Shown here: positions 7,509 through 58,535 of the stretch, in pieces
How positions within the stretch are numbered: position 1 is the stretch's first letter
Layout of the letters: every line of letters begins with the position of its first letter
From: a virus
IMG/VR virus record: IMGVR_UViG_3300045988_163643
Coordinates: 133,825 to 197,824 of that record
Length of the DNA stretch: 64,000 nt
Direction: 5' to 3' (one strand)
Translations under genes and position numbers: made by a program
The notes under the pieces: generated by a model
Seen by the model: the letters and a program-made list of their open reading frames with translations, nothing else
What the model was told of the DNA's origin: nothing
Databases searched by the model: none

Positions 7509-7531
7509 ATAAGTAAAGTGAGGTGATTAAA

Positions 7532-17256: not shown

Positions 17257-17278
17257 ATAAGTAAAGCGAGGTGATTAA

Positions 17279-18607: not shown

Positions 18608-18783
18608 TTTAACAAGAATAAACTTCAACGACTAGAACGCAAGTTCGTAGGGTGTAAGCGATTGACACTCGAAAAGGTCTACCCTTAATATTAAGGTGAA
18701 GAAATAGTCTAGTCACTCTAGGAAACTAGGTGCTTAGAATTAACTAAGGTTTATAGTGTAGCGACTATAAATAAATATTAACG

Positions 18784-19093: not shown

Positions 19094-19099
19094 ATTTAC

Positions 19100-19138
19100 G
19101 AAGGAAGGGTTAAAATATAACTCTTCCTTCTTATTTTA
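19100..19138 (+). terminator. rho-independent terminator overlapping the conserved leader element
   Basis: Stem GAAGGAAG / CTTCCTTC followed by TTATTTTA. Confidence 0.6.
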
Positions 19139-19169
19139 TATATGTAAGATAAAAGAAAGGAGAAAGAAT

Positions 19170-36073: not shown

Positions 36074-37912
36074 ATGAGTAGTTATATAAGTAATTCGTTT
36101 TCAGTATCGGTCAATAGACCGACTACTGGAACAATTGAACCCGTATCAACCGTTAATATATACAAAAATGAAAAAATGTTACAAGCTGTAAGTGGTACAC
36201 CAGGAGACGGAGAGTATAAAGTTACAATAACAAATACAACAAATTGTAGTGCTAGTATAAAATCTGATAATAAAACTATATTATTAAATTCTGTAACAGG
36301 AAATAATGGTACAATAGAAATATCAGTAAATATTGAAAATAAAAAAACATATAGTAAAACTATTTCTGTTGCTAATGTTAATGATACATCTGTTTTAAGT
36401 AGTAATTTTAGTAGAATTGAACAAACTGCTAATAAAATAAGTTGGCTAGTAAAAAGTGGTACTAGTTCAAGTAATATGACATTAACAGATGAAGCACTGG
36501 ATATTATTTCAAAAAATATTAATATTACAGGTACAGTTACTTTTTCTAGTTTAGATAGTTATACTCAAAATAGAATAAATAGTTCATATAATTTGACTTC
36601 AGATTGGTCATATGGAGGAACAACTACAATTAATGGTGCTAAAATACAAACAGGTACAATAACTGCTGACCAAATAAGTGCTAATGCAATTACTGGTAAA
36701 AATATTACAGGTGGTACAATAAATATAGGTAGCGGTACATTTGTAGTTAATAAAAATGGTCAAATCATTGCAAGAACAGAACCTAACTCAAAAGGTCAAT
36801 ATTTGGAAATGAATAGTTCAAGTTATAAAATTTATAATGGTTCTAAAACTGTTGCTATGACTTTAGGTTTTAGAGATGTTACATTTGAGAATGGTAATAC
36901 TTCTACATCAACACCTTGTATATATTTAGGGGCAGATGGTATAAATAATCAAGGTGGTAGTAGTTATACTGCTGGAACAGGTAGATATTTTGGTAGAATA
37001 ATGGCTACTGATAGTCATACTTCAATGTCAAATACTCACGTTGGTGTTCCTTTGATGGAAATAAATTTCAACAGTAGATATACAGATTCTGATACAGGAA
37101 ATGCAATTGCAAGTCAGTTGAGATTTTTTGGTGATGGTGATATGATAATAGCTCCAGTTTGTGACCTTCAAATAAGAACCCATCAAAAAGATAATACGGT
37201 ATCGAAAGGCGGTTCAGAATATGAAGTAGCTTACTTTGCTTCAAGTTCATCTGAATGGTATTCTGGATTTATGAGAACTTATGCTGTGACAAATAATTTT
37301 AATAGTAAAGGTTTGTTCTTAGGAGATTATTATATGAGTTCTTCTGGTAATGGTTATAATTCTAGTCTAGGTGATTTTGTTAGTGCAGTTCTTGTAAAAG
37401 CAGGTAAAACAAGTTCAGGAGACAAAATGAGAACATTTAGACCACATACCGACAATGTTGCCTTATTAGGTACTGGTGGTTATAGATGGGCAAAACTTTA
37501 TTGTGGCAATAGTTCAATAAATACTTCAGATAGAAGATGTAAAACAAACATAAATTATCTTACTTCAGATAATGTAAAGGTTGCAAGTAAACCATTATTT
37601 AATGAAGATGAAATATGGAATTTTGTAAAAGATATTGATTTTGCAACATATAACTTTATAGATAATGAAACAGGAGGAGCTAAAGAAGATAATCAAATAG
37701 GATTTATTTTGCAAGATTTGATTCAAGCTTATCCTGATTTAACCAATTCTTTATTATTGGATAAAGGTAGTTATGATGTAGAAGAGGGTGAAGATGACAC
37801 AATAGTTCCTATGTTAGGATACAATAGTGGAAACTATGTTAATTTATTAGGTTGTGCTTTAAAACAAGCATTACAAAGAATAGAGAAATTAGAAGAACAA
37901 ATAAATAAATAG
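36074..37912 (+). CDS. tail fibre with C-terminal intramolecular chaperone (peptidase S74) domain
   Basis: C-terminus ...SINTSDRRCKTNINYL...IWNFVKDIDFATYNF...IGFILQDLIQ...LGCALKQALQRIEKLEEQINK matches the auto-cleaving S74 chaperone pattern. Confidence 0.75.
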   Translation: MSSYISNSFSVSVNRPTTGTIEPVSTVNIYKNEKMLQAVSGTPGDGEYKVTITNTTNCSASIKSDNKTILLNSVTGNNGTIEISVNIENKKTYSKTISVANVNDTSVLSSNFSRIEQTANKISWLVKSGTSSSNMTLTDEALDIISKNINITGTVTFSSLDSYTQNRINSSYNLTSDWSYGGTTTINGAKIQTGTITADQISANAITGKNITGGTINIGSGTFVVNKNGQIIARTEPNSKGQYLEMNSSSYKIYNGSKTVAMTLGFRDVTFENGNTSTSTPCIYLGADGINNQGGSSYTAGTGRYFGRIMATDSHTSMSNTHVGVPLMEINFNSRYTDSDTGNAIASQLRFFGDGDMIIAPVCDLQIRTHQKDNTVSKGGSEYEVAYFASSSSEWYSGFMRTYAVTNNFNSKGLFLGDYYMSSSGNGYNSSLGDFVSAVLVKAGKTSSGDKMRTFRPHTDNVALLGTGGYRWAKLYCGNSSINTSDRRCKTNINYLTSDNVKVASKPLFNEDEIWNFVKDIDFATYNFIDNETGGAKEDNQIGFILQDLIQAYPDLTNSLLLDKGSYDVEEGEDDTIVPMLGYNSGNYVNLLGCALKQALQRIEKLEEQINK

Positions 37913-40739: not shown

Positions 40740-42122
40740 ATGGCTACAGAAGGTAAAAAAATAAGTCAACTAACAGAAGTGTTAAGTGTTGACAAAGAAA
40801 ATGACTATATAATTGTACAACGTGGAGCAGATAATAAAAAGTTAAAATTAGCCAATGTAATGACAACAGATAATATGGGTGACAATTATGTTGATTTAAA
40901 ATCATATGAAGATAAAAGTGAATTTAGATTAATTATAAATGATGATGGAAAAGTTCAAGTATTTCCAAAGGAATGTGTTGAGGGTCATACTTATGCTGAA
41001 AATGATAATTTACAAATGCCTTTAAAATTAGCTAGTTATATAGGTAATTCTCAAACTGCATTATCTACTGTTAATAATGGAGGTATTGTTATTAATCAAA
41101 TTTATGGTGGTGGAGATTTAGTACCAACATCAACTTTACAAGCACCTAGCGTTAGTCATAGTTTTGTTGAATTATACAATCGTAATGTTGTAGATATTAA
41201 TTTAAAAGGATTATATTTACATTATAAAGGTAATGATGAAACTGTTTGGAAAACATTAGCGTTAAGAGGACTTTTACCAGCACACACTGCTTTTTTAATT
41301 AGAGGTAAACAACATGGAGATTTAATGAGTGATTTAGTAAGATGTAAAATATACGATTATGACCAAGAATGGATAGATTCTGATAAAAATGAACCTATTG
41401 CATTTAGTAGAAATGGTATGTCAATGTTTTTATCAACTAACTCAACTCCGCCTAATGCTAATGAAAACCCTAATAGATATCTTATAACAACTGATACTTC
41501 AGGTGTATCAACATTATCATATGTCAATGGATATTATGTAGATTTATTAGGTGTGGGTAGTGCTGATGGAACAAAAAACCCAGTTGCTTATGAAAAATTC
41601 TATTGGACTTGTATGGATAAAGATACTGCAATAAGAAGAATAGATTTTTATAATAATAAAAATAACAAATATGATACAAAAGCTATAAATTATAAAACTT
41701 GTAATATAGAACATTATAGACCAAGAAGTTTAAGAGATGGAATTTGGGATAACTATTGTGATAAAGCAACTATAAATGAAAACATACCTAATCTTATAGA
41801 TATAACTTTTGGTGAACAACCTACAACAAGACTTTTTACATGGCAATCTGTTTTAACAGATAATGGTTGTGTAAAACTTAGAAGAATAAAAGATAAAAGT
41901 GGAGTAGCAGTAACTGAAAATTGGAAAAAATATGAAAGTGAACGTGAAATAGTTAATAATCATGGTACATTTATGACAATACATAGAACTAAAATAACCA
42001 ATATAACACCTGGTTTATACGAATATCAATGTGGAGAAGAAGGTTATTGGTCAGATGTACAAATGATAGAAATGAGAGAATATACAGATAGTAGTACTAT
42101 TAAAATGCTTTGGACTACGGAT
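40740..42122 (+). CDS. LTD plus purple-acid-phosphatase-like metallophosphoesterase, exon 1 of 4
   Basis: Lamin-tail-domain signature SHSFVELYNRNVVDINLKGLYLHY and a PAP N-terminal-like beta domain. The exon ends ...KMLWTTD (motif I Asp). The TAA at 42123 is the first intron codon. Confidence 0.75.
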
Positions 42123-42446
42123 TAAATATTAGTCCCTATGTAAAGTGATTTATATAGCAAACCTCTTGAATTGCTGGGAAACCCTTAGAGCCTTAATACC
42201 ACAATATAAGAGAAATCATTATATGAAGGTTTGAAAAGTTTAAGGATTGGGTAATCAGCAGGTAAGATTCTAAGTTGTATAAACAATATGAATAAACTTC
42301 AACGAACAAGTATCCTAGTAGTCTAGGTAGTGGGAGGGGTCTCGAAAGAGATTGTGATATGCTCTACTCTCATGTGAAAGCATGAGCAGTTTTCTTTGAG
42401 TAAGAAAACGGGTAGAATAGTAACGATATTCTATTGAATATAAAGG
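42123..42446 (+). mobile_element. group I intron (324 nt, no ORF)
   Basis: P1 GGAT/GTCC with U.G at 42122 and a 3-bp extension, TTGAATTGCTGGGAAACCCTTAGAGCC core, and tail TGAATATAAAGG. The junction is in frame (TTD-QQG). The P7 strands diverge (CAACGAACA / GATATGCTC). Confidence 0.8.
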
Positions 42447-42570
42447 CAACAAGGTTTCACTCAACCTGAGTATGAAGCATGGAGAACTTGTGTTAAAGCT
42501 ATGCAAACTAGAACTGATTTTTATAATAATTATGGCTTACCTGTATTTGATTTTCATTTGAACACTGGAG
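42447..42570 (+). CDS. metallophosphoesterase, exon 2 of 4 (124 nt)
   Basis: Only open frame: QQGFTQPEYEAWRTCVKAMQTRTDFYNNYGLPVFDFHLNTG(D). Confidence 0.75.
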
Positions 42571-42935
42571 TAACAAATTAAGCTCCCTATGTAAATAAAT
42601 TGCATAGCAAACCCTTTGAATTGCTTGTAATCCCTAAAGTCAACTAAACTACAACGTGATTGGAAACGATGAGCGTGAATGTGGCGAAAGCAGAAAAAAT
42701 TAGTTGAATTGTATATGGTTAAATCCTAAGTACTATAAACAATGGGTGTCTAGCAGGTAAGATTCTAAGTTACTATAAGTAATATGAATAAACTTCAACG
42801 ACTATATATACTAGTAGTCTAGTTAGTGGAGGGCATCTCTTTATGGGATGATGATATAGTCTACTCTCATATGAAAGTATGAGCAGTTCATAAGAGAACG
42901 GTATAAAGTATAACGAACTTTATATGAATATTAGG
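42571..42935 (+). mobile_element. group I intron (365 nt, no ORF)
   Basis: P1 GGAGT/GCTCC, TTGAATTGCTTGTAATCCCTAAAG core, CAACGACTA ... GATATAGTCTAC, and tail TGAATATTAGG. Junction +/-1 nt. Confidence 0.8.
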
Positions 42936-43033
42936 ATATTTCACAAAATGCATCTAATTTATTTGAATGGTTGTATTACACTGATTATGGTGAAGAATTT
43001 TGTAGAAACATTCCTCACTTAACTGCATGTGGT
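42936..43033 (+). CDS. metallophosphoesterase, exon 3 of 4 (98 nt)
   Basis: (D)ISQNASNLFEWLYYTDYGEEFCRNIPHLTACG. Together with exon 2 this gives GDIS (motif II) and ends at the G of motif III. Confidence 0.75.
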
Positions 43034-43347
43034 AAATGTTAGCCACCTTTACATAGTGATATGTAATGAAAAACTCATTGAATTGCTGGAAAGTCCTAAC
43101 GTAAAGACGAGGATAATCAGCAGGGAAGTCCCTTTAAAATGGGAAACCTTCAACGACTATCCCTTAGATGTTGAAATACATCAATAGGAGTACGGCTCAA
43201 GTGATTGGAGTGGGTGAAAATCCCTTAAATGGAAGTGGTGAGCATCTCAATAGAGATGAAGATATAGTCTACTCTCATGTGAAAGCATGAGCAGTTTTCA
43301 TGTAAAGAAAACGGATTAAGTGTAGCGAACTTAATTGAATATAAAGG
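43034..43347 (+). mobile_element. group I intron (314 nt, no ORF)
   Basis: P1 TGGT/GCCA with U.G at 43033, TTGAATTGCTGGAAAGTCCTAACG core, CAACGACTATCCC ... GATATAGTCTAC, and tail TGAATATAAAGG. The junction is in frame (ACG-NNDLV). Confidence 0.85.
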
Positions 43348-44361
43348 AATAATGACCTCGTTGATAAAAAATATGGTTTTGCTTATGAACATTATGCTAC
43401 ATATGAAAATGTACCTAAATTAAATGATTATCATAAAGAAGTTCAAGCAACAACAGATTTTCCTATGGTATCTACATATTCTTTTGATTTAGGATTTACT
43501 CATTTTATATGTATAAATTCAAATCAAGAACAAATGTATAATGATTATGGTATAAATCAAACAGAATTTTTATTAAAACAAGCTTACTTCCTAGATAGAG
43601 ATTTATGGAAGGTTAGTAAAAGAACTACAAAACCTAAATGGGTAATTGTATATGCACATTTAAGTCCTTTTACTGTAACAAGAGCAAAAAGATTACAACA
43701 TTGGATACCTATACTTGAAAAATATAATGTAGATTTATTCTTATGTGGTCATAACCATACATATTCAAGAAGTATACCAATAAAATGTGGATATGAAAAA
43801 TCTGCATATGCAGATATGATAAATGAAAAAAATTATAATACCTATGTACCAAAAAGTGGTAAAAATTACACTTTAGTAAATGAAACAAAATTAAGTGGTA
43901 GTGAGATAACTAGAAGTGCTAACATATCTCAAGGTGTTTATTATGTGATGTTCCAAGCAGGTGGTGCTAAACAAAGTGGTAAAGAAAAAGCTATTGATTT
44001 AAGTACTATGACATTCTTAAATAGCACTGGTGGAACAGTAACAAGTGGTACTGAATATACTAAACATTTCCATAGTGGAACAAATAGACCTTGGTGGTAT
44101 GAATATACTAGCTCTTTACCAGTACAACCTTGTTTTGCAACTTTAGATATTTCACCAACATCAATAAAAATGAGTATGAATTATGTTAAAGAAGTAGAAG
44201 CTATAGATAAAGAAACTGGCGTAATGACTGTAGATAAATACGACCCAAATAAACATACAATTGTTAACTTTGATAATTTAACAATAAATTATTCAGATAG
44301 AAATCCAGCTTATAGAACTGGAGTATCTGCTCCTTATTATGACGAGAATAAAAATTATTAA
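43348..44361 (+). CDS. metallophosphoesterase, exon 4 of 4
   Basis: NNDLVDKKYG...WVIVYAHLSPF...DLFLCGHNHTYSRS (PAP motifs III-V). The four exons total 2,619 nt, which is 872 codons plus a stop. The ORF track begins only at internal M 43465. Confidence 0.8.
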   Translation, partial: NNDLVDKKYGFAYEHYATYENVPKLNDYHKEVQATTDFPMVSTYSFDLGFTHFICINSNQEQMYNDYGINQTEFLLKQAYFLDRDLWKVSKRTTKPKWVIVYAHLSPFTVTRAKRLQHWIPILEKYNVDLFLCGHNHTYSRSIPIKCGYEKSAYADMINEKNYNTYVPKSGKNYTLVNETKLSGSEITRSANISQGVYYVMFQAGGAKQSGKEKAIDLSTMTFLNSTGGTVTSGTEYTKHFHSGTNRPWWYEYTSSLPVQPCFATLDISPTSIKMSMNYVKEVEAIDKETGVMTVDKYDPNKHTIVNFDNLTINYSDRNPAYRTGVSAPYYDENKNY

Positions 44362-44374: not shown

Positions 44375-47087
44375 ATGTCTATTAAAAGATGTATTGTTAA
44401 AGACGGAAAAGAACAATGGATAGAAGTTGCTGGAGGAAGTAGCACTATAAATACAGGTGAAGCGATAAACGTTAGTATAAAAGATAATAACGATTTATTT
44501 GAAAGTACAAACGTCGAAGGAGCCTTAAGTGAGTTAGGAACTGATTTGCAAAATGTTAGCAATAAATTAACAAATCACGTAAACAATTCTTCTATACATG
44601 GTGGAGGTGGAGGTGGTGGTAGTATGCCTACCATCACTTCTGATTTTACTATAAATAAATCAGATGGTATAAGCGAAATAGAAATACCAATATTTTTTAA
44701 TTCACCTAACTTAGGTGAAGGTTTAGCTTATATATTAGTTAGTAATGTTGAAGTAGGTACACAAACTGTTCAACAAGGTAACAATACGATTATAGTTCCT
44801 CCTTTGGGAGCTGGTAAAAATATAATTATATCAATATATGTAAAAGATAGAGCAGGTTTAATATCTAACCAAATAAACTGGACAGTAACAAGTGGTGGTA
44901 TAACATTAACAATGCTTACTGACACAAGTGCAGATTATGGTGTTACAAGTAGAATAGTTTTATCATATACAATATCTTCTATGACTGGTGAAGATATTAA
45001 AGTTTATTTTGATGTAGATGGCACAACATATGAAACAAAAGGTACTAATGGATATAACACTTATGAAATTACAGGATTAGATATAGGTGTACATACTATA
45101 ACTTATTGGGCGACATCAGCAGAATATGAAACAAAACATAGTACATTTACACTAATAGTAGTAAGTAAAGACCAAATAATATTATCAACTCAATTTGATT
45201 CAACAATTGAATATGAAAGTGGTATACCAATTAGTATACCATATAGATTATCAGTAGATAGAGATGATGATTTTATTGTAAATTTATATATAAATAATGT
45301 TTTAGATAAAACCATAGTAACTAGACCAACTTCATTGTATTGGACTATATCATCATTAGACCCTGGTGATTATACTTTAAAAATAGAAGCAAAAAATGAA
45401 TCTTTAGGAATGAATAATCATATAGAATTTGAATGTAAAGTTATTCAAAGTGAATATACTAGAATACAACCAGTAATAGATAGTTCTTTAATAGCTTGGT
45501 TTGATGCAACAAATAGAACTAACAATGATAGCGATAGGGATGTTTGGACTGATAAAATAAAAGGCAATAAAGGTTATCTTTATAATTTTAACTATGGTTC
45601 TAATGGATGGTTAAAACAAAGTGGTAAGGAAATTAGTGAACTTGTTATGAATGGTACTGCTTATGTTGAAATAGACATGACACCTTTTGCTGATAACTTT
45701 AAAAATGGTGGTGTAATCGAATTAGTATTTAAAACTAGAGATGTTGGTAATAGTAATGCTAGAGTTTTAGATATAACAGATACACTATCACCATATAAAG
45801 GTGTTTATATTGATACAAGAGAAGCATATTTATCTACTTCATCACAATCTATAAATGGTTCTATAGGTGAAGATGAATATATACAAGTGTTATATAATAT
45901 AGATAGAATTAACAAATATTGTCATATAGTTGTTAATGGAGTAATAATAAAATCTTGTAAATTAGCTGATAGTGGTAGTGGTACTTCTGCTATATTAGAA
46001 TCATTAGCTCATTCTAAAAAGATTTATTTAAATTCCCAAAAAGGAACTAATAATTTTGGCTCTTGTGAAATAGCACATTTGAGAATATATGATAGAAACT
46101 TTACTTTTGATGAAATATTGCAAAACTTTTTATCAAATTACGATGATTTAAAAGTACAAAAAAGTAAATCGGATTTTAATAATCCATTAAAGAATATAAT
46201 GCCTATCATGAATATAACTGCTGACCAAAAACGTTTAGATGATATGACAGATACAAATAGAGTTGAAGTTGCTATGACATATACATCTCCTAATGCAGAT
46301 TTATATGGACAAACTTTAACTAACGCTAGTAACTGTTTAATGTATTGGCAAGGTACATCTTCTATAGCATATAATATTAAAAACTTTAATATATTACTTA
46401 GAGATGAAAATAGACAACCAATAATGTATAGTCCTTTTAAAAATTGTATACCACAAGATTTATTTTGTCTAAAAGCAAACTTAATGGAATCTACTAATGC
46501 TCATAACGTAGGTATAGCTGAATATGTTCATGATTACTTATATACAACTTTGAATCCTGCACAAAAAATAGATAGTAGAGCTAGTAGAACAGTACAAGGT
46601 TTCCCTATATTACTTTATATAAATGGTGAATTACAAGGTGTATATGACTTCAACTTAGATAGATATTCAACAAAAGCGTTTGGATATGAATTAGATGAAT
46701 ATAAAGATACTTGTAGAGCATATGAAATTTCAGCAAATACTAATAAAACTGCTGGTGCATTTATTCCTTGGACTAAGGAAACTGGTGTAGATGAATGGAC
46801 ATGGTATAAAAATGACTTTGTAGGTATATATCCTGAACGTATACAAAATTCAATTAATGATGATTTCTCTGCATTAAAAACATTAATATCATTTGTGCAT
46901 GATTCTACTGATGAAGTTTTTACTACAAATTTCGCTACATATTTTGATAAAGAATCAGTAATAAGATATTACATTTTAGTTCTAGTACTTGGTTTAGTGG
47001 ATAGTTTAGGAAAAAATATGAAGCTAGTAACATTTGATGGTGTTAAATGGGAAATACAAGTATATGATGCTGATACGGCTTTTGGGT
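44375..47087 (+). CDS. giant fibre-like protein with LamG-like and CotH-like domains, exon 1 of 3
   Basis: N-terminal VEGALSELG and a poly-Gly stretch, Ig-like repeats, and a LamG-like block (...AHLRIYDRNFTFDEI). CotH-like segments VQGFPILLYINGELQGVYDFNLDR and KNMKLVTFDGVKWEIQVYDADTAFG. The 30-aa ORF tail after 47087 is intron read-through. Confidence 0.7.
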
Positions 47088-47165
47088 TAATAATAGCTCA
47101 AATAAAACCTTTTCTGATATACGGCGAAACTCCTGGAGAGGACAACGCCTTCCAACTATTATTTA

Positions 47166-47194
47166 TTGACAAATTATAAAAATATATGTATAAT
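47166..47194 (+). promoter_or_regulatory. sigma-70-type promoter inside the intron
   Basis: TTGACA (47166-47171), 17-nt spacer, TATAAT (47189-47194), then AGGAGG RBS 47218-47223. Confidence 0.7.
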
Positions 47195-47230
47195 ATAAAT
47201 ATAAAGAGAATATATATAGGAGGTGATTAT

Positions 47231-48088
47231 GTGTGTAAGAAAGAGAATAGTTTTGCACAATGGTTTATAAATGAATTTGGATTAGAAAAATTTAACACTG
47301 TCATAAATCATGAAAAAAATAAATCATTAGGCATAGATATTTGGAACGTATCAAAGAGAAGTGGTTGTAAAATTTGGTTTAAATGTGAAAATAAAGATTA
47401 TCACGAATATCAACTTACAGCCGATAAATATTTTATTGGTAATAGATGTAAATATTGTGGCAGAACAAAATATGTTCATCCAAGAGATTCGTTAGGTCAA
47501 TATATAATTGATAACTTTGGAGAAGATTTTTTAAATAGAATATGGTCAACAAAAAATAAAAAATCGCCTTTTGAATATACTATTGGAACTGAGAAGAAAG
47601 TTTGGTTTAATTGTATCAATGGTATTCATGAACCAAAATTAAGACAAATAAAAAATTCTGTTGCTAACGACTTTAAATGCCCATTTTGTTTAAAAAATTG
47701 CCATATTTCAAAATTAGAAAAGAAAGTGTTTTTATATTTAAAAAGCATTTTTAAAAACATAAATAGAGAAAGCAATTGTAATTTAATACCCAAAAATCCT
47801 AAAACTAATAAAATAATGCCTTATGATAATGAGATAGTGGACATAAAATTAATAATAGAAGTACATGGAAAACAGCATTATGAATTATCAGTAGATACAA
47901 GTGCATGGTTACATGGATTATCACCAGAAGAATATCTTCATAAAAGAAAATTGTATGATAGGTATAAAAGAATGTACGCAAAGTCCAATGGTTATTATTA
48001 TTTAGAAATACCTTATTGGGCTGATGATTTAGAGGAAACTTGGAAAATTATGATTGATGATAAAATAAAAGAAATATTAAGTCAATAA
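47231..48088 (+). CDS. intron-encoded homing endonuclease: Zn-ribbon modules plus Vsr/DUF559-like nuclease (divergent member)
   Basis: WFKCENKDYHEYQ...NRCKYCG and VWFNCINGIHEP...FKCPFCL modules, then ...PYDNEIVDIKLIIEVHGKQHYE...YLEIPYW. The GTG 47231 start is preferred because the track ATG at 47186 overlaps the -10 box. Confidence 0.7.
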   Translation: MCKKENSFAQWFINEFGLEKFNTVINHEKNKSLGIDIWNVSKRSGCKIWFKCENKDYHEYQLTADKYFIGNRCKYCGRTKYVHPRDSLGQYIIDNFGEDFLNRIWSTKNKKSPFEYTIGTEKKVWFNCINGIHEPKLRQIKNSVANDFKCPFCLKNCHISKLEKKVFLYLKSIFKNINRESNCNLIPKNPKTNKIMPYDNEIVDIKLIIEVHGKQHYELSVDTSAWLHGLSPEEYLHKRKLYDRYKRMYAKSNGYYYLEIPYWADDLEETWKIMIDDKIKEILSQ

Positions 48089-48280
48089 ATAATAGGGGAA
48101 CAACGACTGAGCGAAAAGGACTTACTATAAAGTAAGTATGCAACAGTCTGAACTCACACTATAACTCAAAATATTAAGAAATGTGAGAAGGAAAGTCATC
48201 AGTAACCAGACTGATTAAAGAAGAACTTTCCTCGCCAACTTAGGTTGGTCGGTAGCCTTTATGGTGAAAGTAACAGAATG

Positions 48281-48732
48281 TAGATAATACAGGAGCATTG
48301 AAATATGATGTAGATATAGAAGTTGACCCTGAACATTTCAATACTGCCGATTCAGTATTATGGACTAGAATTAGAGAATTATTCTATAACGATATAGTTG
48401 CTGAATATAATAATATGAGAAATCAAAACTTAACACCTGAAAAAATATATGAAAGTGTATTTACAAATCAAATAGAAAAAATACCTGAAAGTCAATATAA
48501 TCTTAGTACACAAAAGAAATATCTTGATACAGGTGAAAATATTATGATGTCTAATGGTAACAGATATTATAATTTGAAACGTTGGATAAAAGAAAGATTT
48601 ATATATTGTGATACTTTATTTGATTACACTCCTACAACTGCTAAGTATGTAACTGTACGTTCAGGAGTAGAAGGTAAGGCTTATTTGGATATAGAAACTT
48701 ATTATCCTATGTATATAACTATAGAATGGAGG
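48281..48732 (+). CDS. CotH-like giant protein, exon 2 of 3
   Basis: (L)DNTGALKYDVDIEVDPEHFNTADSVLWTRIRELFYNDIVAEYNNMRN...YITIEWR. Both ends are uncertain by a few nt. The ORF-track tail KQYSSYIEKSV* is probably intron sequence. Confidence 0.6.
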
Positions 48733-49194
48733 AAACAATATTCCTCGTACATAGAGAAATCTGTGTAGGACACAACTTTAATTGCAGGTAATGGGTAAAG
48801 CTCTACACCACAATATATCTGAAAAGAATATATGAAGGTACGAAAGTAGAAACAACGTAGAGATTCTCATACGGTTAAATCCTAAGTGAGAAGTGATTAG
48901 ATTCACACAATCCCTGTTCATGCAAGGAAGTTCCTAAGTGATAATCTTGTATCATATGGAAAACCTTCAACGACTATCCTGGAAAGATAAGTGAAATCCT
49001 TATCAATAGGAGTACGGCTCAAGCGATTGGAGTGGGTGAAAATCCCTTAAATGGAAGTGGGTTGCCCTTAACAGGTAATGCTGAAGGTGAAGAAATAGTC
49101 TACTCTCATGTGAAAGCATGAGCAGTTCTTTATTAAATTTTTAACATTTAATAAAGAACGATATGTATGTAGCGAATACATATGAATACAAAGG
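48733..49194 (+). mobile_element. group I intron (~462 nt, no ORF)
   Basis: TTAATTGCAGGTAATGGGTAAAGC core (same subtype as 17035-18783), CAACGACTATCC ... GAAATAGTCTAC, P9 hairpin, and tail TGAATACAAAGG with terminal G 49194. The 3' exon is in frame from 49195. The 5' junction is ambiguous (48732-48741). Confidence 0.75.
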
Positions 49195-52100
49195 AATCAG
49201 GCTGATGGAAGTGGTCGCCAAACATTAAAAATAGGTAGAAATAAAAAAGTAAGATTTAATGGTGAAGTTCAAGCAAAAGACCAAGAAGTTCTTATTTATG
49301 GTGCTCCACATTTAAAAACAATAAGTGGAATGGATGGTATAAAACCACGACATTTATTATTAAATAATGCTCATAAATTAACTGCCGTTGAATGTCCAAA
49401 TAATACAGAACTAATAAATATTCAAATTGATAACTGTTCTTATTTACAAAGATTGGACTTAAGAGGTTGTAGTTCTTTAGGTAATTTAACATCTTCGCAA
49501 GTACTTATAGTTGATGGGTGTAACAATTTAAGATATTTAAATGCATACGGTACAATAATTACATCAATAAGAACCAACCAAGAAGGTGGAAACTTAGTTG
49601 AATTATATGTACCACAAACTTTACAAACATTATCATTAAGAAATCAATATAGTTTAACAACTATAGGAATACCTAATGCTAATGTTCATGGAAATAGTAG
49701 ATTATTTGAACTTAGAAATAAAGCTAGTAAAATAGCAACATTTTCATTAATAAATTGTCCTCTAGTCAATAGATTGACTTATAATTCATCATATAATGTT
49801 AATCATAATTTCTTTGATATACATGGAAATGAAAGAACTTCAAGTGAAATATCTTCTTTAACTTATGTTGAAAAATGGAGAAGATTAATGGATTGGGGAA
49901 ATGGATTAGCTAATGCTAGTGAAATTCATATAGAAAATAGTTGTCTTGATATTGAAGAAATGTCATTTAGAGGTAGTAGTAAATTAGAAAATTTAACATT
50001 AAGAAATTTACCTAATTTAAAGACATTAATGATAGGAGGAAATTGTTCGGGTTATAGATGGAACTCACAAAATAATAATTATGAATCAGATAGATATGAT
50101 ACTTATGGTGAATTTGATTGGTCAGGATTAGTTATAAGAGATTGTCCTAATATAGAAGATTTTAGATTTCAAGAATTATTCCCATTTAATTGGAATGGTG
50201 GTTGGGATGGTAACTTAAGTTATCTTACATTCAAAGAAGGTACTAATTCAATAAATCTTGGTGAAAAATTTCCTAACTTAAAAACATTCTTCTGTAATTT
50301 ACCTACTCAAAATATACATCAAATAATTTTACCTCAATCGTTAACTTGTTTAAATACAAGTGCATGGCAAACAAAACATGATGAAGGTTATCCTCACGAA
50401 GTTAAATTAGAAAAATTTAATATAGATAGTATTTATTTTGAAGGAGAACATACAGATGATTATGTAGGAGTTGATTTAGGGAATCATTTAATGCATGATG
50501 TTAGAATAGTAGCACCTTATTCAACTGAACTAGTAGGATTAAATATTAAAAATGAATGGGTTAATCCTATATTTCAAACATTTAAAGAAGATGGTCATGA
50601 AGCAAGACCTTCATTAACACCTCAAGGTAAAATTGATTTATCTGAATTTAAATGGAAAAGGATATCAAATTGGTTTCAATATATCGACTTTACTAAAGGA
50701 ACTTGTGAAGTGGTACAACCTACTAATTGGGATAGTTTCTTGAAAAATATTGAAAGAGCTGGTGGTATGTTCTATCGTTGTAAGAATCCTAATTTCACTT
50801 GGGAATTTGCAATGAAATTCTTTGGTAAAATGGCTGATACAAGTGATAAAAATACAATGTATAAATATGCACAATTGAAAGAACAAACTAGTTTTGAAGA
50901 AGATGCAGTAGATATGATTTCTAGTAAAAATGCATTTTATTATGATTATCAAGCTAGACCATTTCAAGGAACTAATTTAAAATATGTTAAATCTATACAA
51001 TTAACAGGAACTGATGGATGTTATGGTTTATTTTATGATTGTGAAAGTATTATAAAAGTTGGAAACATAAGTATGACTGGAAATAATAATAACTGGTATG
51101 GTAATGGTGATATGTTTAATGGAGCTATAAATCTTGAAGAAGTAGGAAATATTTATTCAACAAGAAATAAAGAAAATGGAACTGCAATTAATGGCAGTTG
51201 GTATTTTCAAAATTGTAAAAAATTAAGAAAAATAGGTAGAATTGACATGTCGTTAAATAATGGCAATTATATGTTTGATGGATGCATTTCTTTAGTAGAT
51301 GGAAGTATAGAACAATTGCCATATACTGGGGATATGACAACTGCTTATTCCATGTTTAGAAATACTAGATTTACAACAATTGAGTTAGAAAACTTATCTA
51401 GCTTAGAAAATGCAGATAATATGTTTTCTGCTAATCCTAATTTAAAAACAATTCATTTACCAAATATAGGCAGAACAAGTCCTTTAAATAATTTAACAAA
51501 TACATTTAATAGTGATAGTTCTTTAACAAAAATAACAATTGAAGGAGATACTTTGCCAATTGGATTAAAAAGTATGGCTGGTACTTTTAATGGTTGTATT
51601 TCATTGACTTCATTACCACCAATTCCTCAAGATTTTACTTATGATATAAATATGCAATATTGTTGTTATAATTGTGATTCTTTAACTGATGATACAATTT
51701 ATAAGGTAATACCATATAGATGTACACATACTCAATACATGTACTCTCATTGTGATGGATTAATTAATCCAGTAGTAGAAGTTAAATCAGATAATGTTTA
51801 CGCTAGACAAATGTTTGAACGTTGTAAAAATATTAAAACATTAACAGTTAATTTTACAGGTAGATTGTTAAGAGAAAGTATGTATTTTGCTCAATATTGT
51901 ACAAATATGACAGAATTTAACATGAAGTTTCCAGATTCTTTATATATGCATGATTACTATGAAACAGGTGTCGGTCATTATAATATGTTAGAGTATTGTG
52001 AAAATTTATCTATTGTAAATTTAGATATGAGTAGTTTATCAAAAACTAACACTAGAAGTGATTTTGGTGCTATGTTTTATCAAGATAAACATATTACAGA

Positions 52101-52458
52101 AATACATGGATTAGATTTAACATATTTAAAGAAATTTACACATCCATTAACTAATGGTGGGCAAAATCATTATGATTGGCATAATGATTCTATCACATAT
52201 GGTGGTTCATATGATGACTTAAGGGTATTTGAATTAACTGGTAAATTAAATACAAGTTATAACTTTAGAAATATAACTACAATAACACATACTAAAGAAA
52301 TATTAAAACATCTTGATGTTGTTACTAATGAAACTTTAGGTTTGACTTATAATATTATGGATGCTATTGATGATGAATTAAATGAATATGTTGACCCTGA
52401 ATTAAAACAATTAGCTCTTACTGCAAGAGATAATGGATGGACTTTTGTAGTTGTATAG
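49195..52458 (+). CDS. CotH-like giant protein, exon 3 of 3 (leucine-rich / BspA-type repeat region)
   Basis: NQADGSGRQTLKIGRNKKVRF... is open in frame 135 nt upstream of the track start at 49330. LRR-like LxLxxC segments and repeated MF.(G/R)C motifs (MFYRC, MFNGA, MFDGC, MFSAN, TFNGC, MFERC). The three exons total 6,429 nt, or 2,142 codons. Confidence 0.7.
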   Translation, partial: NQADGSGRQTLKIGRNKKVRFNGEVQAKDQEVLIYGAPHLKTISGMDGIKPRHLLLNNAHKLTAVECPNNTELINIQIDNCSYLQRLDLRGCSSLGNLTSSQVLIVDGCNNLRYLNAYGTIITSIRTNQEGGNLVELYVPQTLQTLSLRNQYSLTTIGIPNANVHGNSRLFELRNKASKIATFSLINCPLVNRLTYNSSYNVNHNFFDIHGNERTSSEISSLTYVEKWRRLMDWGNGLANASEIHIENSCLDIEEMSFRGSSKLENLTLRNLPNLKTLMIGGNCSGYRWNSQNNNYESDRYDTYGEFDWSGLVIRDCPNIEDFRFQELFPFNWNGGWDGNLSYLTFKEGTNSINLGEKFPNLKTFFCNLPTQNIHQIILPQSLTCLNTSAWQTKHDEGYPHEVKLEKFNIDSIYFEGEHTDDYVGVDLGNHLMHDVRIVAPYSTELVGLNIKNEWVNPIFQTFKEDGHEARPSLTPQGKIDLSEFKWKRISNWFQYIDFTKGTCEVVQPTNWDSFLKNIERAGGMFYRCKNPNFTWEFAMKFFGKMADTSDKNTMYKYAQLKEQTSFEEDAVDMISSKNAFYYDYQARPFQGTNLKYVKSIQLTGTDGCYGLFYDCESIIKVGNISMTGNNNNWYGNGDMFNGAINLEEVGNIYSTRNKENGTAINGSWYFQNCKKLRKIGRIDMSLNNGNYMFDGCISLVDGSIEQLPYTGDMTTAYSMFRNTRFTTIELENLSSLENADNMFSANPNLKTIHLPNIGRTSPLNNLTNTFNSDSSLTKITIEGDTLPIGLKSMAGTFNGCISLTSLPPIPQDFTYDINMQYCCYNCDSLTDDTIYKVIPYRCTHTQYMYSHCDGLINPVVEVKSDNVYARQMFERCKNIKTLTVNFTGRLLRESMYFAQYCTNMTEFNMKFPDSLYMHDYYETGVGHYNMLEYCENLSIVNLDMSSLSKTNTRSDFGAMFYQDKHITEIHGLDLTYLKKFTHPLTNGGQNHYDWHNDSITYGGSYDDLRVFELTGKLNTSYNFRNITTITHTKEILKHLDVVTNETLGLTYNIMDAIDDELNEYVDPELKQLALTARDNGWTFVVV

Positions 52459-54419: not shown

Positions 54420-54429
54420 GGTGAATTCA

Positions 54430-55374
54430 ATGGATAAAAAAGAAAAAGAAGATGATAAAAAAGTAGATGTGCTTAGCAGTTCTTTATCAACAACAGTTAA
54501 GAAAAATTACGCAATGGAACAAAGTAAAATTAAATTATTTTGGAATAAAGGAATCACTGGAGAAGGAATAAAAGTTGGAATAGTTGACACAGGTTTACAA
54601 TTAGACCATCCTATGTATAATGGAAAAATATTATGTGGTAAAAATTTCTCTAATGATGGTAATTCTGAAGATAATTTATCTAGTAATCATTATCATGGAA
54701 CTGCCGTAACATCTTTAGTATGTGGCGATTATATGAATTATCAAGCTTATGGTATAGCACCTGATTGTAAAATTGTAATAGGTAAAGCTATGAATGATAA
54801 AGGTGTAGGTAATGCTACTAATATAGCCAATGCAATAACATATTGTGTACAACAAGGAGTAGATATAATAAATTGTTCTTTGGGGTGTGTAGATGATACA
54901 CAAGTATTAAGAAATGCTGTAAATTTAGCAGTTTCAAATGGTATATCAATAGTTTGTGCTAGTGGTAATGATGGGCATAATGATACAGATGGAAGTGTTA
55001 GAGAAGTAAGATACCCAGGTGCTTATGGTGAAAGTATTTGTGTAGGTGCAATAGATATAAATTTTAAGGTAACTGATTTTAGTAATTCAAATGAATTTGT
55101 TGATGTTGTAGCACCAGGACAAGATATATTATGTGCCTATCCTGGTGATAAATATGCCATAATAAGTGGAACTTCATTTGCTACACCTATAATAAGTGGA
55201 ATATTAGCATTACTTAAACAAAAATTTAGAATAGACTTTAAAAGAGACCCAGTTGAATCAGAATTATATGGTATGTTATTAAAATATACCAGAGAGATTA
55301 AAGGAGTTCCAAGAAGTATGCAAGGGAACGGTTACATAGATTGTTCAATACGTAGGGAAAAAATTATAAAATAA
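54430..55374 (+). CDS. subtilisin-like serine protease (peptidase S8)
   Basis: Catalytic triad contexts VGIVDTGL (Asp), NHYHGTAVTSL (His) and ISGTSFATPIISG (Ser). ATG 54430 follows a GAGGTG RBS. Confidence 0.85.
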   Translation: MDKKEKEDDKKVDVLSSSLSTTVKKNYAMEQSKIKLFWNKGITGEGIKVGIVDTGLQLDHPMYNGKILCGKNFSNDGNSEDNLSSNHYHGTAVTSLVCGDYMNYQAYGIAPDCKIVIGKAMNDKGVGNATNIANAITYCVQQGVDIINCSLGCVDDTQVLRNAVNLAVSNGISIVCASGNDGHNDTDGSVREVRYPGAYGESICVGAIDINFKVTDFSNSNEFVDVVAPGQDILCAYPGDKYAIISGTSFATPIISGILALLKQKFRIDFKRDPVESELYGMLLKYTREIKGVPRSMQGNGYIDCSIRREKIIK

Positions 55375-55392
55375 ATAGAAAGGAGAAATAAA

Positions 55393-56571
55393 ATGTTTGA
55401 TAAGGATAATAAATTTGGATTTATTAGTAATAATGAAAATTCAAATAATAACATAGAAGGATTAGATAAAATTAAGACAGATATAAATAATATTAAAAGT
55501 GATTTAGGTGATGAAGAATTAACTACTGTTAATAAAGATGTTAAAGGTGCGATAAATGAAGTTAATGCACAATATAAAGATATTGCGAAAAATAAACAAA
55601 TATTGTTAGTAACTCAAGAACAATATGAAAATCTTATCTCTGGTAAAGACGTTACTATTGATGGTGTCAAATATACTTATGATGAAAACATTATATATGG
55701 AATAACAGACGATATTGCTTCTAATAATATACTAACTAGCCCTAATGGGACAGAATATATTCTCAAAGTCGACGACAATGGTAATCTATCTACCGAAATA
55801 AAACCAATAATTTGTACTTCTGTATCACTAAATAAATCCAACTTGACTTTTAATTCGAAGTCTGAACAGACATTAACTGCCACATTTACTCCAGTTAATA
55901 CTTCTGAAGGTAAAGTTTGGAGTTCAAGTAATGAGTCTGTAGCAAAAGTAGCAAATGGTATTGTGACTCCTGTTTCTAATGGTCAATGCACTATAAAAAT
56001 AACTTGTGGAACAAAAAGTGCTACTTGTTCAGTAGTTATAAATATGCCTGTAGAAATTAAAGACTTTACAAATTATGCTTATAATACAGATACTTTTACA
56101 AATCCTACTTCAACTAATCTACAAAATAACAAGACTTATTATACGATATATAATTTGAACAAAACTATAAATGATGGAGTAATGACATTAACAAAAAAAG
56201 ATAACTTAACATCAAACGATAACGCTTATTTATTAATAAAATTAGGAATTGCTGATAATAATACTTATTATTGTAGAGCTAAAATTAAAACTAATGGTAG
56301 TCAGCTTACAGCCGGAAATAATCAAAAACAAGATAAAGATAGTGTCCTTAATGATGGAGAATGGCATTTAGTAAGTTATATTTTTAAAGATAGTAATGCT
56401 AATATGAATAGTTTTACTATTGAATGTGCAACTTTAAATAGTGGAGAATCTGTTCAAATCAAAGAACTTATGAAAATTAATTTAACTGAGATATATGGAA
56501 TTAACGATGAGCCGACGAAGGAAGTTTGTGATACTATATTTACTACTTATAAAACTGGATTAATAGGGTAG
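55393..56571 (+). CDS. fibre-like protein with Big_2 domain and C-terminal putative binding domain
   Basis: N-terminal ...VKGAINEVNAQYKDI fibre motif. Big_2-like SLNKSNLTFNSKSEQTLTATFTPVN...VAKVANGIVTPVSNGQCTIKITCG. Confidence 0.6.
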   Translation: MFDKDNKFGFISNNENSNNNIEGLDKIKTDINNIKSDLGDEELTTVNKDVKGAINEVNAQYKDIAKNKQILLVTQEQYENLISGKDVTIDGVKYTYDENIIYGITDDIASNNILTSPNGTEYILKVDDNGNLSTEIKPIICTSVSLNKSNLTFNSKSEQTLTATFTPVNTSEGKVWSSSNESVAKVANGIVTPVSNGQCTIKITCGTKSATCSVVINMPVEIKDFTNYAYNTDTFTNPTSTNLQNNKTYYTIYNLNKTINDGVMTLTKKDNLTSNDNAYLLIKLGIADNNTYYCRAKIKTNGSQLTAGNNQKQDKDSVLNDGEWHLVSYIFKDSNANMNSFTIECATLNSGESVQIKELMKINLTEIYGINDEPTKEVCDTIFTTYKTGLIG

Positions 56572-56579
56572 GTGAGAAT

Positions 56580-58535
56580 ATGTTGTACAAAAATAGAAAT
56601 AAAATATCTAAATTTATATATAGGGGTAATCCTATAAAATTAATACTTCCTAATAAAAATACTCATATCCCCCCTATTAGTCCAACAGAATATTGGGAAG
56701 CACCAATACAAGAAGCATCAACATATAAACCTTGGAGTTATTCAGAGTTGATTTCTAAATATGATGAACTTGTAGCACAATCACCTAATTATATAACAAA
56801 ATATAGATATGAAAAAAATGGAGTTCCAGTATTAACAAAAAATGGCAATTTCGAAATGTTTCATTATGTTCTAGAACCTGAAAAATATACCAAAACATTC
56901 TTTATACAAGCTGGTATACATGGCAATGAAATGGATGCGAAACAACAACTTCTAAAAGTGGTTAATATACTTGTAAATAAAGTTAATGAACCTGGATACG
57001 AGAATTGGAAAAATATTAGAAATAATGTAAGGCTGGTTATAATACCCTGTGTCTCACCTTATGGTCACGAAACTAGTACTATGAATATACCTTATAATGA
57101 TGCTCAAGGAGGCATAAATCCAAATAGGAACTACGATTTTAACCATCAATATGCAATACCAGGTACCGGTGTAGGTGGAAGTATTGTTATGGAGTTAGAA
57201 GAATGTCAACACACTTTTGATGTTATGAATAAAATAGGAGTTGAAAATATAGATTATGCCATGGATTGGCATGATGGAGGAGCTATTCAGAAGCACTTTT
57301 GGATTAATTACAGTGTAGATGGATATAATAGAAATATGGTTAATAATTTAGTGGCTCATTTTATTGATAAATTTAATATAGAAAGCCCAATTATACCAGA
57401 TTGTAAAGATGGAGCTACAACAGGTATTGCGTCAATGTTTTTCGCTAAATCTTTAGGATTAAATGGTAGCGTTGTTGAATGGTTAGGTGGATTACTAGGT
57501 TATGATTTCCAAAGTGACCAAATGACAAAAAGTTTAGAATTAAGAGGTAATATGATATTACAAGCTTACAAATTAAATAAAAAGGGTTGGGAAATATATG
57601 AAGAACCATCGCAACAATATTTTAAATTTGATTATCCTAAAGCGTTTACAGTAGATAGTCTTAGAAAAGATGAAGCAGAAGATGTAACTAAAGTTACAGA
57701 TGATAAAATTTATTCAAGATGGGATAAATTACAAATTAAATACCCTTCATTAATAACTAAATCAGCTAAACTTGGTTTAAGTTCGGCTGGTCAACCTATA
57801 TATACTTATACATTTGGTACTGGTAGTCAAAAAGTATTATATATTGGTGGAGTAATGAGATATGGAGGGACACATAAAATCGATGAATTTGCAATATATG
57901 AACTTATAGAATATTTATGCAATGACTATATCGTTAAACAATCAAGATTTTTGCGAGATTTGAAAGATAATTATAAGATTATAGTACTCCCTTGCATTGA
58001 TAATGTTGCCACAAATAATTCAGAACAAGGAAAAAATGGAATTAATAATATGATATTAAATAGAGATAAATGGGAAATTGTAAATGGAAAATGTCAACCT
58101 ACAGCATATGCGTTAAGTGTCCATGATGTACCTATTGTAAAGAATATAATAGATAGTAACAAAGATTTAAAAGTTATAGTCAGTGGAGGAGAAATAATGA
58201 CTGGGTATTCCCTAAATACCCAAGACTATTTAACTGATTATGAGACAAGTATAATTGTACCTAAAAACCAAAGCATTTCAAATTTAACAAATTATAAAAC
58301 ATATCTTGAAAATGATAGAGATGAAGATGTAGTAATTGAAACTACTAAAGGTACTACTTTTGGCGATTATGCTTACGACAATTATCAAATACCTACATAT
58401 TATGTTCAACTTAAAGTTTCTAAAAAATTCATTAAATTATCAGAATACCATAATTTAACTGAAGATGAATATTTATATTGTAATTATGAAGCAGGAAGAA
58501 GAATGTCAAACATAGTTAACTTATTCTTAATATAA
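56580..58535 (+). CDS. tandem M14-like zinc carboxypeptidase domains (second copy degenerate)
   Basis: First domain FFIQAGIHGNEMDAKQ (HxxE zinc motif)...NPNRNYDF...DWHDGG. Second domain VLYIGGVMRYGGTHKIDEF lacks the HxxE motif. Confidence 0.6.
   Translation: MLYKNRNKISKFIYRGNPIKLILPNKNTHIPPISPTEYWEAPIQEASTYKPWSYSELISKYDELVAQSPNYITKYRYEKNGVPVLTKNGNFEMFHYVLEPEKYTKTFFIQAGIHGNEMDAKQQLLKVVNILVNKVNEPGYENWKNIRNNVRLVIIPCVSPYGHETSTMNIPYNDAQGGINPNRNYDFNHQYAIPGTGVGGSIVMELEECQHTFDVMNKIGVENIDYAMDWHDGGAIQKHFWINYSVDGYNRNMVNNLVAHFIDKFNIESPIIPDCKDGATTGIASMFFAKSLGLNGSVVEWLGGLLGYDFQSDQMTKSLELRGNMILQAYKLNKKGWEIYEEPSQQYFKFDYPKAFTVDSLRKDEAEDVTKVTDDKIYSRWDKLQIKYPSLITKSAKLGLSSAGQPIYTYTFGTGSQKVLYIGGVMRYGGTHKIDEFAIYELIEYLCNDYIVKQSRFLRDLKDNYKIIVLPCIDNVATNNSEQGKNGINNMILNRDKWEIVNGKCQPTAYALSVHDVPIVKNIIDSNKDLKVIVSGGEIMTGYSLNTQDYLTDYETSIIVPKNQSISNLTNYKTYLENDRDEDVVIETTKGTTFGDYAYDNYQIPTYYVQLKVSKKFIKLSEYHNLTEDEYLYCNYEAGRRMSNIVNLFLI

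Follow-up and report, generated by a model that had tools for sequence, protein, structure and literature searches.

A predicted phage tail protein with a CotH kinase-like domain, encoded by a gene that two group I introns interrupt

Group I introns that carry homing endonucleases are familiar in phages: they interrupt td, nrdB and sunY of T4 and the DNA polymerase genes of SPO1-like phages, and three of them lie in orf142 of Staphylococcus phage Twort. Phage and prophage proteins of about 2,000 amino acids (aa) that combine CotH and Laminin_G_3 domains with leucine-rich repeats (LRRs) or carbohydrate-binding modules have been described as targets of diversity-generating retroelements (DGRs) (Wu et al. 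2017; Benler et al. 2021; Macadangdang et al. 2024; PMC5758913, category f1; PMC8008677; bioRxiv 10.1101/2024.11.15.621889, group 3). Giant CotH/lectin phage proteins and phage introns that target motif codons are both already known. Herein, we analysed a 64,000-nt stretch of viral DNA (IMG/VR record IMGVR_UViG_3300045988_163643, positions 133,825 to 197,824; hereafter the window) with attention to the region 44375-52458. Judged from its sequence, this region is probably one gene for a 2,142-residue distal-tail protein that contacts the host, interrupted by two self-splicing group I introns and carried by a low-GC phage of a host among the Firmicutes. We assign a probability of about 0.85 to the gene structure, the introns and the domain identity as described below. 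What may be new is how densely intron sites are packed in the CotH core, a family of introns missed by Rfam and a G-C pair at a 5' splice site. All positions are those of the window and residue numbers are those of the spliced 2,142-residue protein, unless stated otherwise.

The two introns resemble the classical phage introns in the looped-out open reading frame (ORF) of intron 1, in their position at codons of active-site motifs and in their presence or absence among close relatives. The classical introns occupy genes for nucleotide metabolism, polymerases or lysins, whereas these occupy a CotH tail gene; they also depart from the classical pattern in that intron 2 and two of its relatives have a G-C pair at the splice site and that the family of intron 1 is missed by the Rfam model RF00028. 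With the DGR-targeted CotH proteins, the protein shares the size class, the core of lectin, CotH and LRR or carbohydrate-binding domains and an inferred role in the tail or in receptor binding, and Bacteroides phage homologues of that class were matched directly in our homologue search. Those proteins end in a hypervariable C-type lectin diversified by a reverse transcriptase, with no introns described, whereas the window protein is without that region. Scans of the protein and of a set of neighbouring ORFs returned neither a C-type lectin nor a reverse transcriptase, the search for pairs of template and variable repeats not having been exhaustive. A preliminary description of the locus had singled out a CotH-like fold in a tail protein, with an intron at its signature motif, as deserving attention; the combination is real, but given that CotH/lectin phage proteins have already been described, the protein is less surprising than was implied.

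Two further systems bear comparison. Bacillus phage G gp353 (YP_009015656, 2,055 aa), which carries no functional annotation, resembles the window protein in its N-terminal NVEGAL motif and Gly run, in its Ig and lectin parts, in the core of the CotH domain and in the beginning of the LRR region, and gp352 and gp353 show the same pairing with an upstream metallophosphoesterase. The two phage G genes are uninterrupted, whereas in the window the CotH gene has two introns and the phosphoesterase gene three, and the C-terminal halves of the CotH proteins barely align. A literature search on gp353 returned no paper mentioning it, and a search for functional work with phage CotH proteins returned no experimental study. 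The solved Bacillus CotH (5JD9/5JDA) has the same atypical protein-kinase-like fold, with the catalytic-loop Asp/Asn and the metal-binding Asp; it is a stand-alone spore protein of 360 residues, whereas the domain described here is embedded in a 2,142-residue tail protein and has an extra insert of low model confidence.

Four ORFs are listed on the plus strand of the region, at 44375-47179 (934 aa), 47186-48088 (300 aa), 48298-48768 (156 aa) and 49330-52458 (1,042 aa). The proposed layout of the gene is as follows.

44375 to 47087, plus strand: exon 1, residues 1-904 and the first base of codon 905 (ORF list; collinear with gp353 and with the intron-less relatives L011 and L012); encoded here are the fibre-type motif at the N-terminus, a run of Gly residues, the three Ig-like domains, the jelly roll of lectin type and the first two-thirds of the CotH domain
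46352 to 47087, plus strand: exon-1 part of the CotH domain, residues 660-904 (Pfam, hidden Markov model alignment to 5JD9, fold match to 5JDA)
47000 to 47017, plus strand: catalytic-loop motif DSLGKN, with D876 and N881
47066 to 47086, plus strand: metal-binding motif DADTAFG, with D898 and D900
47088 to 48280, plus strand: intron 1, a 1,193-nt group I intron (P1, terminal G, covariation, intron-less orthologues)
47186 to 48088, plus strand: intron-encoded homing-endonuclease-like ORF, 300 aa as listed (Pfam, PHROG, ribosome-binding site)
48281 to 48732, plus strand: exon 2, from the last two bases of codon 905 to residue 1055; it encodes the last third of the CotH domain (ending at about 48594) and a linker rich in beta structure
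48733 to 49194, plus strand: intron 2, a 462-nt group I intron without an ORF (GC 0.36 versus 0.27 in the exons)
49195 to 52458, plus strand: exon 3, residues 1056-2142 and the stop codon; a BspA/DUF285-type LRR region

Joined, the three exons give 6,429 nt, that is, 2,142 codons and a stop, with no internal stop codon, and the two peptides quoted in the preliminary description are present in the product. A ribosome-binding site (AAAGGAGATGATTAAATG) precedes the start codon of exon 1, whose product matches PHROG 9915 (E=2e-99); exon 2 has neither a start codon nor a ribosome-binding site of its own. Intron 1 begins one nucleotide into codon 905, right behind DADTAFG (residues 898-904), and the earlier placement of the first intron directly after a D.D..FG motif was accordingly correct. 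If the RNA were left unspliced, translation is predicted to stop 30 codons past junction 1 and 11 codons past junction 2. The GC content of the non-ORF parts of both gaps is 0.36-0.375, against 0.27-0.28 in the exons, as expected of structured RNA in an AT-rich genome.

The junctions are fixed by relatives that lack the introns. A scan of bacterial genome contigs returned two contigs of bacterial metagenome-assembled genomes, L011 and L012, in which the entire protein is one unbroken ORF, 72% and 63% identical, respectively, and each matched as a single tblastn high-scoring segment pair over residues 1-2142. The junction peptides of L011 (...YDCDTAFGLDNTGALKYD... and ...TVEWRNQADGSGRQTLK...; longer stretches, DTAFGLDNTGALKYD and EWRNQADGSGRQTLK) are identical to those of the predicted splice product (…DTAFGLDNTG… and …DTAFGLDNTGALK… at junction 1, …EWRNQADGSGR… at junction 2). 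With the junction marked by a slash, the L011 DNA reads GCTTTTGGGT/TAGATAATAC at junction 1 and GAATGGAGA/AATCAAGCT at junction 2. Because the intron-less L011 carries identical residues at both junctions, the exon coordinates first proposed, those of exon 2 as approximate, are exact to the nucleotide. L011 (JAEDJT010000039.1) is binned as 'Bacilli bacterium' and L012 (JALFMW010000316.1) as 'Clostridium sp.'; this is the sole hint of a Firmicutes host, the binning of phage contigs being unreliable.

Phage G gp353 is a single 2,055-aa ORF collinear with residues 42-1221 (29% identity, E=9e-140), and the alignment runs through junction 1 without a gap. From 5.8 billion proteins searched, about 35 closer relatives were retrieved, and in most of them the sequence breaks off at, or a few residues from, one point or another of the CotH core. 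P0001 (79% identical, contig L004) has no intron 1 and ends at junction 2 with the read-through tail of the window itself, RKQYSSYIEKSV, and the locus L009 lacks intron 2 and has, at junction 1, an intron without an ORF. By comparison of these close relatives, which lack one or both introns, the introns are polymorphic. The stretch 49195-49329 of exon 3 (135 nt), which lies 5' of its first ATG, is kept in L004 with substitutions of the synonymous type, and by this pattern its codons are under purifying selection.

The ORF list separates the three pieces, of which the second and third have TTG and ATG starts, and truncated products are also called on related contigs. These observations would suit independent proteins of 934, 156 and 1,042 aa, separated by ordinary intergenic or mobile-gene DNA, with the CotH domain made as two fragments. 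We consider this highly improbable. The intron-less orthologues are single ORFs with identical junction peptides, coding conservation reaches 5' of the nominal starts of pieces 2 and 3, and neither piece has a ribosome-binding site. Moreover, the read-through tails (…LIIAQIKPF… and …KQYSSYIEKSV) are not conserved where the intron is absent, the intervening RNAs have a conserved and covarying group I structure, and the split would fall inside the catalytic core of one fold. A single spliced gene is the reading that we prefer. In dozens of metagenome contigs, gene-calling programs have cut this gene into shortened 'CotH' and 'DUF285' proteins, and recognition of the introns would restore a complete, enzyme-bearing tail protein.

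The CotH domain was examined in the spliced product. The Pfam profile CotH (PF08757) matched residues 660-1009 in one stretch that runs through junction 1 (61.7 bits versus a cut-off of 23.8, E=1.1e-16) and spans profile positions 5-317 of 322, so that the profile match on which the earlier assignment hinged was obtained. A phmmer search of the PDB with the single-sequence CotH region returned no CotH structure, and a profile was needed; the profile built from 20 diverse homologues matched the B. cereus CotH structure 5JD9 (E=1.3e-6). In this alignment, DSLGKN falls on DGFVHN and DADTAFG on DYDATWG, with D876 and D898 on the first D of each. D876, K880, N881, D898 and D900 are invariant across the 20 homologues (columns D274, K278, N279, D296 and D298 of alignment A4). 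The AlphaFold2 model of the domain (pLDDT 68, pTM 0.73) had 5JDA and 5JD9 as its top Foldseek matches (E=1.7e-12, probability 1.00, TM 0.61/0.69), followed by PI3K and HipA kinases at E>0.008. Collectively, the profile, the modelled fold and the catalytic residues indicate that the CotH domain is real, as had been claimed. The proposal that D.D..FG is an element of the metal-binding type was likewise upheld by its alignment with DYDATWG. B. subtilis CotH is inactivated by D228Q and D251A, according to PMC7821199, which cites Nguyen et al. 2016. From the 23-residue spacing, D876 and D898 would be the equivalents of D228 and D251, and the first Asp of the D.D..FG element would correspond to D251.

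Given the conserved residues, we lean towards a catalytically active domain. It is distinctly less probable that the gene structure is right and the CotH-like domain non-enzymatic, as a binding or structural pseudo-kinase or as an adhesin of the kind seen in the fungal CotH invasins. A non-enzymatic role would agree with a virion protein that acts outside the cell without a supply of ATP, with flanking domains that are all binding modules (Ig, lectin and LRR), and with an identity of about 13% to the solved B. cereus CotH kinase; phage CotH proteins have in addition been described as unstudied (PMC8008677). However, 20 distant homologues all keep the catalytic-loop Asp/Asn and the two Asp of D.D, and these align with the residues that CotH catalysis requires (PMC7821199). 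The DNA of the motifs is also conserved strongly enough to provide recurrent homing targets, which argues that the kinase-like domain is functional. Catalytic activity remains the reading that we favour, and D876, N881 and D898, together with the conserved phosphoesterase partner described below, offer concrete handles on the phage CotH class.

Both interruptions were assigned to group I by homology, structure and covariation, in keeping with the two introns first proposed for this gene. In intron 1, P1 consists of 7 bp between exon UUUGGGU (47081-47087) and GCUCAAA (47096-47102), with U47087·G47096 at the splice site. P3 pairs CCUUUUC with GAAAAGG, P7 pairs GACUG with CAGUC, and the terminal G is G48280. 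An R-like element, CAACGACUGAG, starts at 48101; CAACGACUG stands directly before P3', P8 follows, and CAACAGUCUGAAC after P8 closes P7. The order of helices is canonical (P3-P4-P5-P6-P7-P3'-P8-P7'-P9), with R/S-like elements and a P3/P7 pseudoknot, and without its ORF the intron has a fold z-score of -4.9. The ORF-less copy in L009, at the junction 1 site, is about 261 nt long and differs from the window intron by 17 compensatory changes in 63 pairs; a pair count from a MAFFT alignment of the two was not used, because P6 and P8 were misaligned in it. Across five members of the family, both partners are changed in 31 of the 54 pairs from P3 to P9.2, and the pairing is canonical in 268 of 270 cells. 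The L009 copy scored 16.7 bits against RF00028 (E=0.08). On this structural and comparative evidence, intron 1 belongs to group I.

The tape-measure gene of Microcystis phage MaeS (MT362618) contains an intron whose 3' 200 nt are 77% identical to intron 1; it has the same end, GAAAGUAACAGAAUG, and an ORF of the zinc-finger/nuclease type. It differs in the interrupted gene, in its cyanobacterial host and in having a classical S element, GAAGAUAUAGUC. In the MaeS record (L003, about 36250-37540), this intron is unannotated, its ORF is QJT70403, and the annotated start of the exon behind it lies some 270 nt too far downstream.

The ORF of intron 1 lies, with its flanks, at 47162-48088 in the terminal loop of P6a. 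Its start codon is probably GTG at 47231, 7 nt after AGGAGG (47219-47233), and not the listed ATG at 47186. The product has N-terminal treble-clef zinc fingers (Pfam DUF4379) and a C-terminal nuclease-like region, and it matches PHROGs 559 ('HNH endonuclease'), 9084 ('homing endonuclease') and 7140 ('intron encoded nuclease') with E values from 7e-17 to 1e-5. Two paralogues lie within the tape-measure introns of the window. By its position in the loop and its similarities, the ORF at 47186-48088 is an intron-encoded, homing-endonuclease-like gene.

Intron 2 was likewise difficult to recover with Rfam. At the gathering threshold, a search of the whole window reported only three introns at 42113-43291 and none in 44375-52458, and a permissive search of 46800-49600 missed both introns of the CotH gene. 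When intron 2 was searched alone (531 nt), RF00028 aligned over the full model with 38.6 bits and E=2.2e-8. Intron 2 is homologous to the three threshold-passing introns 5 kb upstream (42113, 42539 and 43023; 62-100 bits), and 75-125 nt of it are 80-90% identical to introns of Bacillus phages AR9/PBS1; in a megablast search of the locus against phage genomes, this stretch of about 75-125 nt was the sole match. Compared with L004, GGG paired with CCC is replaced by CCC paired with GGG in P5, and G-C by A-U in P9 and in two peripheral hairpins. G49194 is the terminal G and the sole G conserved at the 3' end between the two. Homology and compensatory change place intron 2 in group I.

The pair at the 5' splice site of group I introns is almost always U·G. 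In intron 2, P1 is formed by GGAGGAA with UUCCUC, and the last exon nucleotide, G48732, pairs with C48743. Alternative registers were considered and rejected. The junction 48741/49195, which has U at -1, adds K-Q-Y, residues that are absent from P0006, P0008, L011 and L012; registers ending at U48727 or U48739 lose the conserved Trp-Arg or need a non-conserved terminal G. The same G at -1, paired with C, is found at protein-conserving junctions in intron B of the upstream metallophosphoesterase gene (42569/42570 region) and in an intron of L005 (13219-13605). Two of these three G-C introns have a U·G pair one position inside the intron. Introns A and C of the phosphoesterase gene, sisters of intron B, have the canonical splice-site pair. 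The family of intron 1 and this G-C splice site could extend the known rules of 5' splice-site recognition by group I introns.

The G48732-C48743 pair at -1, the stop codon 11 codons into intron 2 and the sub-threshold Rfam score would also fit an intron that splices poorly. The gene would then be partly disabled or regulated, and much of its product would be a CotH-only protein of about 1,066 residues without the LRR region, either as a consequence of decay or as a second isoform; this unspliced isoform is predicted to be about 120 kDa in size and to end in …WRKQYSSYIEKSV. We regard this as unlikely. Exon 3 is 62-72% identical to the intron-less orthologues, with changes of the synonymous type, and L004 keeps the same intron and the same P1, with its helices held by compensatory changes. 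Intron B of the phosphoesterase gene and the intron of L005 also have G at -1, and both stand in genes whose expression is required, which indicates a tolerated family trait rather than decay. Efficient enough splicing of intron 2 to yield the complete protein is the reading retained here.

The positions at which relatives break were compared, with a slash marking each break. The ORFs of homologues P0002-P0037 and loci L005-L010 break at about eleven sites, namely after residues 795/796, 879 (DSLG/KN), 900 (YDAD/), 904/905 (FG/L), 906, 909, 916, about 935, about 986, 1055 and about 1086, most of them clustered at the two catalytic motifs. Six sites were confirmed in DNA, in which coding resumes exactly behind an insert of 0.26-1.2 kb, often with an endonuclease-like ORF, and almost none of the sampled close relatives has an unbroken CotH core. 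Rfam searches of L004-L008 reported no introns at either threshold. The earlier notion of an intron targeted at the signature motif was right as to position, and the case is one among about eleven intron sites in the CotH core of relatives.

The family of intron 1 was found at four CotH sites, including L006 9770-10862, L007 9674-10910, L008 9617-10682 and L009 7881-8141, as well as L010 from 2816 to its end. Its ORFs vary, being of the zinc-finger/nuclease type, of a NUMOD3/GIY-YIG-like type or absent, which suggests modular exchange. Its guide sequences vary with the site: GCUCAAR pairs with YUUGGGU at 879 and 904/905, and GUCC pairs with GGAU at 900 and 916; another occupied CotH site reads …AACTTGGGT/AAAAAC…. 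A match of guide and exon at each site is what spread mediated by reverse splicing would produce, and it suggests that, besides endonuclease homing, reverse splicing may have carried the family to new sites. In a still broader reading, the CotH core would be an intron hot zone with at least about eleven sites (residues 795-1086). An uncatalogued family invisible to Rfam would occupy at least four of them, a second family would splice after a G-C pair, and the tail tip would carry an active kinase of the CotH type that, together with a partner resembling purple acid phosphatases, acts on virion proteins or the host envelope. Taken as a whole, we put this forward tentatively and consider it rather doubtful.

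The proposed course of events is as follows. The primary transcript would self-splice, and only then would the full protein with a complete CotH domain be made. The endonuclease would cut intron-less alleles of co-infecting relatives and so copy intron 1 into them, and the introns would lie at the catalytic motifs of CotH because those codons would be the most conserved DNA among these phages. The protein would be mounted on the tail tip by its N-terminus, with the lectin and LRR parts binding the host surface. The CotH domain may then act as a phosphotransferase on substrates of the virion or the host envelope, or on virion or host proteins in the infected cell during assembly, where ATP is present; it may also act jointly with the neighbouring phosphoesterase on phosphorylated envelope polymers. 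The phosphotransferase step is the weakest of this mechanism.

Several points weigh against the interpretation as a whole. That the RNA splices, that the protein is part of the virion and that its CotH domain is an active kinase are inferences, and a tail protein outside the cell would be without an obvious source of ATP. Some CotH proteins, such as the invasins of Mucorales, serve as ligands and not as enzymes. The CotH model is only moderately confident at a pLDDT of 68, with a disordered insert at fragment residues 164-226, and the mapping to D228 and D251 is an argument from spacing and not a direct alignment to the B. subtilis sequence. Since the helices used for the covariation of intron 1 were defined by hand in each sequence, the counts given above lean towards the proposed structure. 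Intron 1 had no RF00028 match at E<=10, its 3' part alone included, and intron 2 lies below the Rfam gathering threshold (38.6 versus 50). Finally, the G-C pair of intron 2 stands where U·G is nearly universal, and this departure could make its splicing inefficient.

The remaining domains of the protein were assessed with profiles and models. The region N-terminal to the CotH domain is the following.

44627 to 46174, plus strand: three Ig-like beta-sandwich domains and then a ConA/LamG-type jelly roll, residues 85-600

The AlphaFold2 model of residues 85-600 is all-beta (pLDDT 87.7), and its Foldseek matches were the lectin domain of trypanosome sialidase, tetanus toxin Hc and giant adhesins. 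Homologues have Laminin_G_3/Sialidase matches in Pfam (PF13385/PF02973); in the window protein itself, Pfam gave sub-threshold matches only for Ig and no match for LamG. The Ig-like repeats and the LamG-like block noted earlier are consequently supported by the model, by Foldseek and by the Pfam matches of homologues, the own-protein Pfam search being without LamG. The C-terminal 1,090 residues are leucine-rich. When the C-terminal piece was searched, LRR_5 reached 27.9 bits (residues 1725-1844, 51202-51561; cut-off 27.7); on the whole protein it reached 19.8 bits, and the orthologous downstream exons in L004-L009 have DUF285 or LRR_5 matches. The assignment of a BspA-type LRR C-terminus is borderline in the protein itself and is strengthened by the DUF285 matches of its homologues. 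The MF.GC motif, which had been described as recurring, occurs once in its strict form, and the relaxed form [MLFYT]F.[GDNERQ]C six times in residues 1580-1928. Searches of PDB and NCBIfam with the endonuclease, CotH and LRR regions as single sequences returned no relatives.

The gene stands in a tail module, between the genes for the tape measure, the distal tail protein (Dit) and a minor tail protein on one side and an endolysin gene on the other, which agrees with its original description as a phage tail protein. The upstream tail genes encode a tape measure that is split by introns and exceeds 4,000 residues, Dit, the minor tail protein and proteins of giant size; a homologue in phage NatCom_3357 lies between Dit and the holin/endolysin genes. 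Near the CotH gene, the order is metallophosphoesterase, CotH gene, a DUF4376/PHROG 1348 'tail fibre'-like gene, S8 and M14 peptidases and endolysin. The immediate upstream neighbour is the following.

40740 to 44361, plus strand: metallophosphoesterase gene, with LTD, purple-acid-phosphatase N-terminal and Metallophos domains (Pfam); orthologous to phage G gp352

Its exons lie at 40740-42122, about 42447-42569, about 42935-43033 and about 43348-44361, placed by tblastn with the unsplit L004 orthologue (865 aa), and three tandem group I introns (Rfam, 62-100 bits) fall within about 75 codons. Introns B and C are located at metal-binding motifs, HLNTG/D and LTCG/NND. The pair of metallophosphoesterase and CotH genes is kept in phage G, L004, L005, L006, L008 and L009.

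Other enzyme domains were observed in the tail module (29951-36058, 36074-37912, 54421-58535 and 60614-61975): one protein of 2,035 aa contains a GH16 domain, a fibre protein bears an intramolecular chaperone (S74), and two peptidases are a subtilase (S8) and a carboxypeptidase (M14). The endolysin consists of Amidase_2, SH3 and SPOR domains. The tape-measure gene (2150-19170) is split into pieces of 1,712 aa at 2150-7288 and 2,459 aa at 9207-16586, and its gaps hold homing-endonuclease ORFs at 7523-8428 and 17279-18607 (PHROG 559). S-element motifs, GATATAGTCT, occur at 8522, 9009 and 16842, with a one-mismatch copy at 18701, and these motifs point to four more introns that Rfam did not report. 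Rfam detects only three of the nine or so introns that the window probably contains.

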